Shown here: positions 2,648-13,997 of the stretch, one piece after another
How the letters are laid out: each line of letters opens with the position of its first letter
Position numbering within the stretch: position 1 is the stretch's first letter
IMG/VR virus record: IMGVR_UViG_3300027833_000001
Location: 64,001 to 128,000 of that record
Origin: a virus
Direction: 5' to 3' (one strand)
Length of the DNA: 64,000 nt
The notes under the pieces: model-generated
Told to the model about the DNA's origin: nothing
What the model saw: only the letters and a program-made list of their open reading frames with translations
Database searches by the model: none
Position numbers and translations under genes: made by a program

Positions 2648-4079
2648 ATGGGGAGTTAGTGCTGGCACACATGATGCCTCTTTGACTGTGATGTACGACA
2701 ATGGTTGGTCTACACCAGAAATTATTTTTGCATCGCATTCTGAAAGATATAGCAGATTTAAAAATGACAAGCACTTAAATGAAAGTTTAATACGTGAGGC
2801 TCTCAAGTATGGGCGACCCGATGTGGTTTACTGGTATGAGAATCCTCTACTTAAAGCAACTCGTAAGTTATATGCTAGACAGAGTAAACCTTGGCTTAGT
2901 CCTAAGAAGTATCTTAGAGAATGGGGTATCGATGCACCAGTAAAATGGGGTAATCACCATGAGAGTCATATGGCAGCCGGGTACTATACACGACCAAAAA
3001 ATTGGAGTACTGATTGTGCTACTCTTGTTATTGATGCTATAGGAGAATGGACAACTACTAGCATTTGGTACAATGATGAGCAATTGTGGACTCAGAATTA
3101 TCCTAAATCATTCGGATTGTTTTATTCTGCATTTACAGATAGAATTGGATTGAAAGCAAATGAAGATGAATATATTCTTATGGGTATGGCAGCCTACGGT
3201 GACCCTTCTAGATTTCATAGAGAGGTATTGGATCTTTGGCATTCCGGTGTTAATCTCCATAGAGGTATTTCTTGGTGGATGCCTGAACTTACTGAAGACG
3301 ATTATTTCGATGTAGCCGCGGCTGTTCAAACAGTATATGAGTATCAGTTTAGAATGTTACTTCAGAAAGCCCATACAATAACAAATACAAATAATCTAGT
3401 TTTTATGGGTGGGTGTGCATTGAATTGTCTTGCAAATCGATTGATACCAGATTACTTCAAGAATCATTGGATAATGCCTAATCCAGGAGATGCTGGTTCT
3501 TCATTGGGCGCTATATTAGCACACAAGAAATGTCATATTGATTTTAATGTTTATTTGGGTGAATCCATATATGGTAAATATCCAGTTAAGGCTTTGTTAG
3601 AGGAATTGAAAACTACTGGTATTGTAGGTGTTGCAAACGGTCAAGCAGAGTTTGGACCTAGAGCATTGGGTAATAGAAGTTTATTAGCTGATCCTAGAGG
3701 TAAGAAGATGCAAGACAAAGTAAACGCAATCAAACAACGACAAGAGTTTAGACCATTCGCTCCAGTTATTCTACAGAGAAACGCATATAAGTATTTTGAT
3801 GTGAATAAAAACTTTTCATCTCCGTATATGCAACAAGTAGTCAGATGTTTAGAGCCTAAAAAGTATCCTGCAATAGTACATAAAGATGGTACTAGCAGAG
3901 TTCAGACAGTAACTAGTCAAGATCATAAAGGGTTATACAAGCTACTGACACGATGGGAAGCAGAAACAGGATGTCCTATGTTGTTAAACACTAGTCTTAA
4001 TATCAAAGGTGAGCCAATAGTAAACTCCAGACAAGATGCTGAAGACTTTGAAATGGAATATGGTGTAAAGGTCTTTTAA
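2640..4079 (+). CDS. Carbamoyltransferase (NodU/CmcH/TobZ family)
   Basis: HDAS, ERYSRFKND, HHESH, DAIGE, EYILMGMAAYG, GGCALNC, PGDAGSSLGA, EFGPRALGNRSLLADPR, FRPFAP, LLNTSLN. Confidence 0.93.
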   Translation: MIEWGVSAGTHDASLTVMYDNGWSTPEIIFASHSERYSRFKNDKHLNESLIREALKYGRPDVVYWYENPLLKATRKLYARQSKPWLSPKKYLREWGIDAPVKWGNHHESHMAAGYYTRPKNWSTDCATLVIDAIGEWTTTSIWYNDEQLWTQNYPKSFGLFYSAFTDRIGLKANEDEYILMGMAAYGDPSRFHREVLDLWHSGVNLHRGISWWMPELTEDDYFDVAAAVQTVYEYQFRMLLQKAHTITNTNNLVFMGGCALNCLANRLIPDYFKNHWIMPNPGDAGSSLGAILAHKKCHIDFNVYLGESIYGKYPVKALLEELKTTGIVGVANGQAEFGPRALGNRSLLADPRGKKMQDKVNAIKQRQEFRPFAPVILQRNAYKYFDVNKNFSSPYMQQVVRCLEPKKYPAIVHKDGTSRVQTVTSQDHKGLYKLLTRWEAETGCPMLLNTSLNIKGEPIVNSRQDAEDFEMEYGVKVF

Positions 4080-7952: not shown

Positions 7953-7981
7953 TTGACATTTGGCTATTGTTTTGCTATAAT
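7953..7981 (+). promoter_or_regulatory. Sigma70-type (early) promoter
   Basis: TTGACA (7953-7958), 17-nt spacer, TATAAT (7976-7981), extended -10 TG and A-tracts upstream. Confidence 0.85.
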
Positions 7982-7987
7982 AGTCTT

Positions 7988-8650
7988 ATGAAAATATTTA
8001 ATCACTTAGATTTACCAGAACTTCCTAGTCTTTCCAGAAAGAATATTGATGGAAAGCGTATGTATTGTACCGATAGTGGTGATAGATATCCGTCTATCAC
8101 TACTGTCCTCTCCTGTCGTGGCAAGAAAGGTTTGTACGAATGGAGACAGCGTGTTGGATCAGTAGAAGCTGATAAAGTCAGTAAGAAAGCATCTACACGT
8201 GGTACCAAAATTCACAAGATATGTGAAGACTATATCAACAATGAACCTCTACCAGAACTGACCCTAGTCGAACAAGAGACTTGGAACACGTTTAGACCTG
8301 TTGTAGAGCGTATCGATAACATCCATCATGTAGAACCATTCATGTTCAGTAACCATCTTGGTATTGCTGGTCAGTGTGATTGTATTGCAGAGTTTGATGG
8401 TAAACTGTCTATTATAGATTTCAAGACCTCACGTAGACTCAAATCTCACAAAATGATATCAAGTTACTTTGCACAGTGTGCCGCGTATGCAATCATGTAC
8501 GAAGAGTTGACTGGCATTGCAATCAATAGAACTGTTATATTAATGGCAGTTGATGATGAGCAACCACAGATATTCATTGAGAAGCGTGATAATTATGTCG
8601 ATTATTTACTAGAAAGTAAACGTATGTTTGAAGCTGGTGAAATTGATTAA
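7988..8650 (+). CDS. Cas4-like PD-(D/E)XK exonuclease of T4-like phages
   Basis: YPSITTVL, WRQRVG, RGTKIH..CE, AGQCDCIAEFDGKLSIIDFKTS, YFAQCAAYA. Start moved to ATG 7988 because the TTG at 7967 lies inside the promoter. Confidence 0.85.
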   Translation: MKIFNHLDLPELPSLSRKNIDGKRMYCTDSGDRYPSITTVLSCRGKKGLYEWRQRVGSVEADKVSKKASTRGTKIHKICEDYINNEPLPELTLVEQETWNTFRPVVERIDNIHHVEPFMFSNHLGIAGQCDCIAEFDGKLSIIDFKTSRRLKSHKMISSYFAQCAAYAIMYEELTGIAINRTVILMAVDDEQPQIFIEKRDNYVDYLLESKRMFEAGEID

Positions 8651-8659
8651 TATGAGACT

Positions 8660-8667
8660 ACTAAATA
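8660..8667 (+). promoter_or_regulatory. T4 late-promoter variant upstream of the tmRNA gene
   Basis: ACTAAATA followed by GAACT, the same downstream context as the TATAAATAGAACT promoter of gp25. Confidence 0.5.
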
Positions 8668-8672
8668 GAACT

Positions 8673-8930
8673 ACTAGATTTGATGAAGCGTATATTAGGA
8701 AGTTTGGACGCGGGTGCAACTCCCGCCGCCTCCACCATAAGCACATTTTGACGAGTGTTCTTATGTTGGGGGCGAGTTAGGTTCGACAGGCAACTGAAGG
8801 TACGTGGAGAATCGGTGCGGAAGCTACCGTAAACGCAACAAAACCTATAAATGCCAACGATGAGGTATTTGCACTAGCCGCATAAGCTAGTCGGGGTATG
8901 GGATCCACCTTGTAATCCAACGGTCCCACT
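8673..8930 (+). ncRNA. ssrA: Circularly permuted two-piece tmRNA (acceptor piece, intervening segment, coding piece); tag (A)ANDEVFALAA
   Basis: T arm GCGGG/CCCGC (8710-8726) and acceptor 3' strand CGCCTCC-A-CCA (8727-8737) come before the 5' strand GGGGGCG (8768-8774), giving the G3.U Ala identity pair. GGTTCGAC follows. Tag GCC AAC GAT GAG GTA TTT GCA CTA GCC GCA TAA at 8853-8885. Stop-codon hairpin ACTAGC/GCTAGT and pseudoknots on both sides. Ends are approximate. Confidence 0.93.
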
Positions 8931-8955
8931 TTTAAAGGCAAGAAGGATAAACTAT

Positions 8956-9534
8956 ATGCTTAAATCGACATTTATAACGATTAGCCCAATAATACTATTA
9001 TTATGTTTTCTTAATGGAGACAAAGAAGAAGTAAAACAGGAAGTCCAACTAAATGAGATTGAGATTGTAGAAGTAGTAGAACCATTACCACAAATTGATA
9101 AAAAAGAAATCCAATGTATGGCAATGAATATTTACCATGAAGCGAGGAACGAGTCTGAACTAGGACAAGTTGCTGTAGCCAATGTGACAATAAACAGAGC
9201 CAATTCTAAAAGATTTCCTGACACTATCTGTAGTGTTGTTTATCAAGCTAAAATGAGTAACTGGTGGAAACAAAATAAGAACAGAGATGTTCCTATAAGA
9301 AATGCTTGCCAGTTTAGCTGGTATTGTGATGGAAAATCTGATGTTGTACGTGAAGTTAAAGCGTATAAGGAAATAGAAAAGTTAGCAGAAGAAGTTCTGC
9401 AGGGATTACATAATGACAATACATATGGCAGTACACATTACCATGCACATTACGTTAATCCATACTGGGCAAGCAGTCTAGTGATGGTGTCACAAGTAGA
9501 CAGTCATATATTTTATATAAGTGGTAATAGATGA
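8956..9534 (+). CDS. Cell-wall hydrolase, SleB/CwlJ (Hydrolase_2) family, with hydrophobic N-terminus
   Basis: CMAMNIYHEARNE, GQVAVANVTINR, FPDTICSVVYQ, CQFSWYCDG, THYHA.YV.P.W. Confidence 0.9.
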   Translation: MLKSTFITISPIILLLCFLNGDKEEVKQEVQLNEIEIVEVVEPLPQIDKKEIQCMAMNIYHEARNESELGQVAVANVTINRANSKRFPDTICSVVYQAKMSNWWKQNKNRDVPIRNACQFSWYCDGKSDVVREVKAYKEIEKLAEEVLQGLHNDNTYGSTHYHAHYVNPYWASSLVMVSQVDSHIFYISGNR

Positions 9535-12497: not shown

Positions 12498-13997
12498 ATG
12501 CACGGAATAATATTTGGTGGCTTGTTAGAAGATTTGGGAATGGACTCCAGTATGGTAGCTATTCGTAGATCATCTGGTGCACATAAGATTGCTACCTTTT
12601 TACGAAATCATAATTATGATATTGAGGTTGTTGATTATATTCATCGATGGTCTTTAGATCAATTAAAAGAATTTACAATAAAGAAAGTTGATACAGAAAC
12701 TCTTTTCTTTGGCTTTAGTTCTACGTTTATGATTAGCACACCAGAGTTGATTGAGTTTGTTCATTGGCTCAAACATAGATACCCCAATATCAAACAAGTT
12801 ATCGGTAGTCAAAATCAAACAATGAAAGAACTACCATGTGACTGGTATATTTACGGGTATGGTGAGTACGCTATACTAGCACTCTTAGACCACTTTAAGG
12901 GAGGACCAGAGCCGATACACGAAGGAAATCTTATAAATGCATATACTAACTACAAGGCATTTCCTAAAGAAGACCTTTCTGTTCAATATACAGAGAGAGA
13001 TTTTATCCACGACAGGGAAATACTACTGTTAGAGATGGCAAGAGGATGTAAGTTCAAATGCTCTTTCTGTAGTTTTCCTATTCTTGGTGTGAAAGATGAT
13101 CATACAACCTCAGAACAATATTTCTACGATGAGATGTCGAGAAACTATGACAAATGGGGTACGACTCATTACATGGTTCTAGATGAAACATTCAATGATT
13201 CTAGTGAAAAGATTGCGAAGTATGCGGCTGCCTGTAGAAAACTTCCATTCCAACCTAAGATGACTGCTTATATTAGAGCAGACTTAATGGTATCTAGAAT
13301 ACAAGATTGGGACAACTTGATAGATATGGGAATCACTTCTCACTTTTATGGTGTTGAGTCTATGCATTTACCTTCAGCTAAATCAATTGGCAAAGGAATG
13401 AACAGTGGGCGAATACAAGATGGCTTGCTTCATGTAGATGAGTACTTCAGAAAGAATGCTGGCTTTTATAAAGGACATATATCTTTGATTGCTGGTTTAC
13501 CACATGAGACATTAGAAACTCTCAGAGAAACAAAAGACTGGTTAGAAAAGTATTGGATAGAAAATAGTTATCATATGAATCTATTGATGATTAAAGATTT
13601 AGATAAAAATGGCGCGTCACTGAATCATAACTCTGCTATGGATAAAGATTGGAAAAAATTTGGATACGAGAAAACTACTTTTCCAGAAGAGTGTGATATT
13701 GATTGGAGTAAAAGTTATAATCCATATTTCAAAAATCTCTATGAGTACGTGGATAAGTATGAATACTATTTGAAATGGAAAAATGAAAATTTAAGTCTTT
13801 ACGAGGTTACTAAATTTGCAGTTGAAGAATGGAGTCAAGCTAAACTTAAAAATGGTATTGATCCGTTTATGTATGATAAGTTCTTTATTGATCCCACAGT
13901 TAAGTGGAGTGACTTTGCTGAATTAAATCATTTAGAAAGAAGAACAGACCACATCAATGCTCATATAGATGACTATATAAGTAAGAAATTATCCTAG
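12498..13997 (+). CDS. B12-binding-domain radical SAM protein
   Basis: ARGCKFKCSFC (CxxxCxxC), DETFND, YIRADL, GVES, IAGLPHET; N-terminal GAHKIA..LR...Y.IEVVD cobalamin-binding-like region. Confidence 0.85.
   Translation: MHGIIFGGLLEDLGMDSSMVAIRRSSGAHKIATFLRNHNYDIEVVDYIHRWSLDQLKEFTIKKVDTETLFFGFSSTFMISTPELIEFVHWLKHRYPNIKQVIGSQNQTMKELPCDWYIYGYGEYAILALLDHFKGGPEPIHEGNLINAYTNYKAFPKEDLSVQYTERDFIHDREILLLEMARGCKFKCSFCSFPILGVKDDHTTSEQYFYDEMSRNYDKWGTTHYMVLDETFNDSSEKIAKYAAACRKLPFQPKMTAYIRADLMVSRIQDWDNLIDMGITSHFYGVESMHLPSAKSIGKGMNSGRIQDGLLHVDEYFRKNAGFYKGHISLIAGLPHETLETLRETKDWLEKYWIENSYHMNLLMIKDLDKNGASLNHNSAMDKDWKKFGYEKTTFPEECDIDWSKSYNPYFKNLYEYVDKYEYYLKWKNENLSLYEVTKFAVEEWSQAKLKNGIDPFMYDKFFIDPTVKWSDFAELNHLERRTDHINAHIDDYISKKLS

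Follow-up and report, generated by a model that had tools for sequence, protein, structure and literature searches.

A predicted two-piece tmRNA with mixed alpha- and beta-type features in the genome of a T4-like phage

What is a tmRNA gene with its parts in permuted order doing in the genome of a T4-like phage, and is its RNA likely to work? The window analysed here is a stretch of 64,000 nucleotides, positions 64001–128000 of a virus record. That record is complete, 165,127 bp long, and has direct terminal repeats and 38% G+C. Gene content near the tmRNA is that of a T4-like marine myophage (PhoH, a PD-(D/E)XK exonuclease and a gp32-like SSB), and the best protein matches, at about 40–47% identity, are to cyanophages and to the Pelagibacter phage Mosig. 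The RNA genes of the record are one tRNA-Arg(TCT) and the window tmRNA. (Elsewhere in the window, a 499-aa open reading frame at 12498–13997 had no tblastn match at E ≤ 1e-5 among 50,697 phage records.) A preliminary description, made by reading the sequence, had proposed a phage-encoded circularly permuted tmRNA, and the proposal is borne out. ARAGORN called a permuted tmRNA at 8645–8976 with the predicted tag ANDEVFALAA*, the sole gene that it called in the 64-kb window. Rfam searches of the same window gave full-length matches to RF04321 (tmRNA_permuted; 121 bits against a cut-off of 47, E = 4e-23, match 1–213) and to RF01850 (beta_tmRNA; 118 bits against a cut-off of 84, E = 3e-35). With scores so far past the cut-offs, chance is excluded. 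Judged from sequence, the gene very probably encodes a functional-type phage two-piece tmRNA (ssrA) of the kind known from marine T4-like myophages, a reading to which a probability of about 0.9 may be given.

The permuted order is plain from the layout, all of it on the plus strand: the T arm, the 3' acceptor strand and the CCA (ending at 8737) stand 5' of G1 (8768), with a 30-nt spacer between them. The acceptor piece (8677–8737, from the Rfam alignment) holds the 5' strands of P2, the T arm (8710–8726; stem GCGGG/CCCGC, loop UGCAACU at 8715–8721), the 3' acceptor strand CGCCTCC (8727–8733), the discriminator A8734 and an encoded CCA (8735–8737). The spacer (8738–8767) folds into a hairpin of -9.4 kcal/mol and is predicted to be excised. 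The coding piece (8768–8928, from the RF01850 and RF04321 alignments) opens with the 5' acceptor strand GGGGGCG (8768–8774), followed by the D-loop analogue (8775–8786, including A8779 and G8780), the 3' strands of P2 (8787–8812) and pk1 (8813–8836). The tag reading frame called by ARAGORN (8853–8885) runs from the resume codon GCC through ANDEVFALAA to the stop codon UAA (8883–8885), which lies in the loop of a hairpin (8873–8878/8886–8891). Last comes the 3' pseudoknot (8893–8928), in which GGGGU (8893–8897) pairs with ACCUU (8907–8911) and UGGGAUC (8899–8905) with GGUCCCA (8922–8928), with a run of U after it.

A reading of positions 8500–9100 found the coordinates of the preliminary description correct throughout (T arm, acceptor strands, CCA, spacer, G3.U70 and tag frame), and the foldable spacer, the stop-codon hairpin and the final pseudoknot that it described are all present. 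Its other helices fared less evenly. For P2, the pairings CAGGC/GTTTG and TACGT/GCGTA match the Rfam consensus structure; CTGA 8794/TTAG 8695 is doubtful, being absent from that structure and losing one of its pairs to a G8698A change in the related viral contig L049. For pk1, the stem 8813–8816/8826–8829 aligns to a model hairpin, and the second stem, GCG 8817–8819 with CGC 8834–8836, is drawn by eye only. The alanine-type acceptor stem and the LAA-ended tag of that description both hold: the identity features for alanine comprise a 7-bp acceptor stem, the G3.U70 pair (G8770.U8731) and the discriminator A73 (A8734), and 8 of the 10 tag residues are those of the tag in the RF01850 consensus line. 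The exact tag ANDEVFALAA was not found in the papers searched. RF01850 has a helix to which the second stem of the 3' pseudoknot aligns. It also closes with a 9-bp hairpin that the window RNA lacks, the last 20 model positions being deleted in the alignment.

Could such a gene be no more than a passenger, a fragment of the host's ssrA acquired when a prophage was excised imprecisely, or kept as an attachment site, with no role for the phage? The ssrA gene is the integration site of many temperate phages, which then carry its 3' end, and several standard-form matches in IMG/VR and in GenBank phages do look like pieces of that sort. The window gene, however, is whole, neither piece nor the tag being absent, it lies in a 165-kb T4-like record with terminal repeats, and dozens of related phages share the synteny of its locus. 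Its T-arm, moreover, was not found in a permuted gene of any bacterial species genome (185,579 searched), and the flanks have diverged far more than the RNA. A passenger is accordingly hardly credible.

The conservation was measured in a trio made up of the window and two related viral contigs with the same gene, L065 and L049. The acceptor piece (8677–8737) is 100% identical to that of the window in L065 and 98.4% in L049, and the coding piece (8768–8928) is 98.1% and 100% identical, respectively. Identity within the trio is 83–84% in phoH, 89.7% in the nuclease gene, 65–69% in the 26-nt gap before the tmRNA and 81.5% in the 3' tail. The spacer has diverged as well: in L049 it is 38 nt long and 47% identical to that of the window, with a perfect 12-bp hairpin stem. 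The boundaries between conserved pieces and diverged flanks and spacer, at 8677, 8737, 8768 and about 8928, thus predict the ends of the mature RNA. The tag ANDEVFALAA was called identically by ARAGORN in L049 and L065, and the tags that it gave for related viral genes all end in AA after a hydrophobic residue. In the window, the spacer hairpin pairs the CA of the CCA with bases just 5' of G1, and the spacer of L049 does likewise. Among 72 unique viral spacers of at least 18 nt, the median folding z-score was -3.3, and the ends were paired in 58.

Do the proposed helices covary? The trio is too alike for compensatory changes within its own beta-like body, and covariation was judged in a MAFFT alignment of 101 unique viral permuted genes, leaving aside the outer P2, pk1 and the stop hairpin, where the alignment is unreliable. 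The acceptor pair 6:67 (8728:8773) is A-U in 72 of the 101 sequences, U-A in 15 and G-C in 13, and the G3.U70 pair is invariant in all 101. The T-stem pair 8711:8725 occurs as five pair types without a mismatch in any of the 101, and the inner P2 pairs 8704:8789, 8705:8788 and 8706:8787 are canonical in 98–101 of them, with two to five pair types each. In the 3' pseudoknot, the pairs 8894:8910, 8895:8909 and 8896:8908 are canonical in 94–98 of about 100, with exchange between G-C and A-U. The second pk1 stem (8817–8819/8834–8836) is invariant in the trio and lies where the broad alignment is unreliable. The minimum free energy fold of the precursor recovered the T arm, the acceptor stem, the spacer hairpin, the pk1 stem and the stop hairpin, but not P2, and its energy was only modestly better than that of shuffled sequences (z = -1.5).

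The T-loop, UGCAACU, is unusual in having a G at position 55 (G8716), which is U55 in tRNAs and in most tmRNAs. Exact matches to the T-arm and acceptor pattern came from 101 viral contigs, with a permuted gene in about 90. In the species genomes the same pattern turned up in 35 of the 185,579; ARAGORN found a tmRNA in 30 of these loci, always one-piece, and a permuted layout was seen in none of the 35, which belong to Elusimicrobiota, Patescibacteria, Omnitrophota and a few Bacillota. A sample of IMG/VR, taken without bias from stretches whose T-arm and acceptor end are of tmRNA type, was 53/80 permuted, with G55 in 33 of the 53 permuted genes and U55 in all 11 standard ones. Burks et al. (2005, PMC1168896) had already described a G here for Caulobacter and a GG for the mitochondria of Reclinomonas. 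The G55 T-loop was considered as a phage-specific signature and rejected, given the G in Caulobacter (PMC1168896) and in the alpha consensus and the many viral permuted genes with U55. Two viral one-piece tmRNAs (L030 and L068, with tags ANDNVELVPTAIAA and ANDNVEFVPAAIAA) have the UGCAACU loop as well, so this elbow type is not confined to permuted genes in viruses.

The elbow comparison, made over loci L005–L105, L106–L140 and L144–L301, set position 55 beside the equivalent of position 18, taken as the D-loop base four before UCGA. Among unique viral permuted genes, G55 goes with A18 in 59 of 62 and U55 with G18 in 41 of 41, counts that are uncorrected for relatedness. The bacterial one-piece tmRNAs with G55 have A at the position-18 equivalent in 33 of 34 cases, and the Rfam alpha consensus has the T-loop GGCgGUA, with AAAuAGGA before UCGAC. 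This 18:55 pairing rule was not found stated in the structure paper (PMC1168896). In the window RNA, A8779 would form a tertiary pair with G8716, and G8780 one with C8717. Since G55 is matched by A18, as in the alpha consensus, the RNA appears to have a working alpha-type elbow and an intact tRNA-like domain.

A non-canonical T-loop in a phage without its own SmpB might also be read as the mark of a decoy, which would titrate SmpB, AlaRS or ribosomes and so block trans-translation in the host, and there is a precedent: as cited in PMC11915505, a decoy role has been reported for the tmRNA-like RNA of mycobacteriophage DS6A, which has no CDS. A pure decoy, however, would have no need of the resume codon, the 10-codon tag, the stop hairpin and the pseudoknots, all kept at 98–100% identity, and the change in the T-loop is compensated in the D-loop, which makes it equal to the working alpha-type design. 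A decoy is for these reasons very unlikely, and a functional tmRNA remains the preferred reading.

To which type does this tmRNA belong? The preliminary description had pointed to the alpha, beta and cyano two-piece models of Rfam as a check. Both of the former exceed their cut-offs (beta, 118 bits against 84; alpha, 85.9 against 50), but the cyano model, at 27.2 bits, falls below its cut-off of 70, and beta is the best model of the clan. The betaproteobacterial two-piece tmRNA (RF01850; Sharkady and Williams 2004, as cited in PMC9004378) aligns with the window RNA in the resume region, the ANDE.FA.AA-type tag and the 3' pseudoknot of GGGG/CCUU plus 6–7 bp. The beta consensus elbow, on the other hand, has U55 with GG (T-loop UUCGAUU), whereas the window has the alpha-type G55 with UAGG, and the window gene is phage-borne, not betaproteobacterial. 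With the alphaproteobacterial two-piece tmRNA (RF01849), known from Caulobacter (Keiler et al. 2000, as cited in PMC9004378), the window RNA shares the two-piece design, the spacer hairpin, G55 in the T-loop and A at the position-18 equivalent. Its alpha score is nonetheless 32 bits below its beta score, and it has U54 where the alpha consensus has G, and a tag that is short and beta-like. The window tmRNA is therefore mixed, with a beta best score and an alpha-type elbow.

Relatives outside the trio show the same features in other combinations. Further beta-scoring viral genes (L194, 155 bits; L152, 149 bits) both have U55, and viral genes with the UGCAACU loop are mostly alpha-scoring. The nearest relatives beyond the trio, L146 and L165, agree with the window in T-stem, acceptor stem and P2 core but carry a U55/GG elbow, and reach no cut-off of the clan. 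Recombination of a single tract was tried as an explanation of the mixed type and set aside as not clean, because the T-stem and acceptor match L146, and the T-loop, D-loop and spacer ends are Mosig-like.

The closest named systems are the pelagiphage Mosig EXVC030M (MT647606) and the OM43 phage Melnitz EXVC044M (MZ577097), in both of which a two-piece ssrA was described by Buchholz et al. (2022, PMC9004378). Both have the permuted order, a T4-like (Kyanoviridae-type) genome, a G at position 55 and an LAA-ended tag, as in the window, and in both there are upstream sites of the form TTGACA-17-TATAAT/TATAAA, analogous to the window promoter. The likeness to Mosig goes further, in that the T-loop is UGCAACU in both and the permuted gene lies just 3' of a PD-(D/E)XK nuclease gene. 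Outside the tRNA-like domain, however, sequence similarity to the window is low. The tags differ, being GEDNFALAA in Mosig and ANDNYVPVDYALAA in Melnitz against ANDEVFALAA in the window, and so does the best model, which is alpha for Mosig (67.6 bits) and Melnitz (106.7 bits) and beta for the window (118 bits). The Melnitz spacer is 138 nt long, whereas that of the window is a plain 30-nt hairpin without a nested gene. (The 138-nt spacer, at L263 1564–1701, contains an ATG-initiated stretch.) Melnitz, finally, has a glutamine riboswitch after ssrA, which scored 52.8 bits in the same search. Such a riboswitch at the 3' end of ssrA is common in Melnitz- and Mosig-like phages, without defining them (PMC9004378). 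In the window, RF01739 was absent at the gathering score, as it was from 8400–9200 at E ≤ 10, and no further Rfam family was found near the tmRNA gene.

When would the RNA be made? Directly 5' of the tmRNA is the PD-(D/E)XK exonuclease gene (7988–8650, plus strand; phrog_298 exonuclease, E = 1.9e-67), and upstream of that a putative sigma-70-like early promoter (7953–7981, plus strand), TTGACA-17-TGcTATAAT, with 12 of 12 consensus matches and the TG of an extended -10. L065 and L049 have the same two hexamers. As there is no promoter-like site of comparable quality in the 26-nt gap between the exonuclease stop (8650) and the tmRNA, and no terminator was found 3' of the tmRNA, the tmRNA is probably carried on an early transcript with the nuclease gene, read from the promoter at 7953–7981. 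The arrangement is a common one: among 77 viral loci with the UGCAACU T-loop, 61 have a PD-(D/E)XK homologue directly upstream on the same strand. The first in-frame ATG of the exonuclease gene (7988) comes 7 nt after the end of the promoter, and the exonuclease message may therefore be leaderless; the TTG start at 7967 in the list of open reading frames falls inside the promoter.

How would such an RNA act? After early transcription with the nuclease gene, host RNase P may cut 5' of G8768, and nucleases would trim back to the CCA at 8737, the 30-nt spacer being discarded; further cuts would give ends near 8677 and 8928. These processing steps are suggested by the conservation boundaries and by what is known of the two-piece tmRNA of Caulobacter. 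The 7-bp acceptor stem and P2, helices whose pairs are present, with covariation, would hold the two pieces together. Host AlaRS presumably charges the RNA, for which G3.U70 and A73 are in place. With host SmpB, the RNA would enter stalled ribosomes, translation would resume at GCC 8853, and ANDEVFALAA would be added as an LAA-ended degradation tag that marks the product for proteolysis. The need for host SmpB, which the preliminary description had also proposed, follows from the genome: a six-frame Pfam search (PF01668) of the complete 165,127-bp record was empty at E ≤ 10. The function of the window tmRNA is thus dependent on its compatibility with host SmpB.

Why should a phage bring its own? 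The benefit might be that ribosomes are kept free and truncated proteins recycled amid broken messages, a speculation shared by Buchholz et al. (2022, PMC9004378). Those authors also raised the possibility of targeted proteolysis, under which the tmRNA would be selected for the degradation of host proteins with phage-cut messages or of the phage's own non-stop products, in the service of amino-acid recycling or the timing of infection. The replacement of host tmRNA cut by a defence nuclease, put forward in the preliminary description, would be a further conjecture. The early promoter, the nuclease gene that adjoins the tmRNA in most relatives and the invariance of the tag in the trio would all suit such a role. 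No target is known, however, and the adjoining nuclease is of the PD-(D/E)XK exonuclease type, a fold characteristic of nucleases that act on DNA. The sequence, moreover, offers nothing to tell targeted proteolysis from general rescue, and a dedicated role of this kind is unlikely, if somewhat less so than a decoy.

Two-piece tmRNAs in marine T4-like phages are already published and are common in viral metagenomes. Buchholz et al. (2022, PMC9004378) counted 53 that ARAGORN called permuted among 133 unique phage tmRNAs, 50 of the 53 being marine or aquatic, and found permuted tmRNAs in 17 of 47 Melnitz-like contigs. The premise of the preliminary description that phage tmRNAs are one-piece is contradicted by these cases, Melnitz and Mosig among them. 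The window gene itself has no cultured close relative among 50,697 phage records: a blastn search with the gene matched by the T-arm only, in Mosig and in an Alcaligenes phage. The latter, vB_Af_QDWS595 (OK149171.2), is N4-like (Schitoviridae) with a betaproteobacterial host, and ARAGORN called in it a permuted tmRNA with the tag ANDNVYAAAA* (L143 1444–1820, about 55 kb into the record), at a site where the GenBank record has no feature. Another viral contig with a permuted tmRNA, L024, also has a manA RNA motif (RF01745) at 3533–3740, which scored 57 bits against a cut-off of 55.2.

What, then, does the window gene add? The small new points are its mixed alpha and beta character and the clean covariation of positions 18 and 55 in the elbow. 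With a short, empty spacer, no riboswitch, sharp conservation boundaries and a complete genome that lacks smpB, the gene also offers a clean minimal reference for its kind. It is possible, though tentative, that the elbow has two interchangeable states, G18/U55 and A18/G55, and that the RNA of the window lineage is a hybrid made by nature, its elbow alpha-type and its body beta-scoring. If this is true, the elbow has been switched, or exchanged between phage ssrA genes, within one lineage, and the change perhaps fits the RNA to the SmpB or the modification enzymes of a new host. Typing a phage tmRNA as alpha or beta would then say little about its host or origin. The preliminary description had taken the gene as a clue to the host lineage, and the clue is weak: Melnitz infects OM43, a host of betaproteobacterial type, yet carries an alpha-type gene, which makes type a poor guide to the host, and the window RNA joins a beta best score to an alpha-type elbow. 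For host prediction this is a caution, since within the window RNA itself two domains point to different types.
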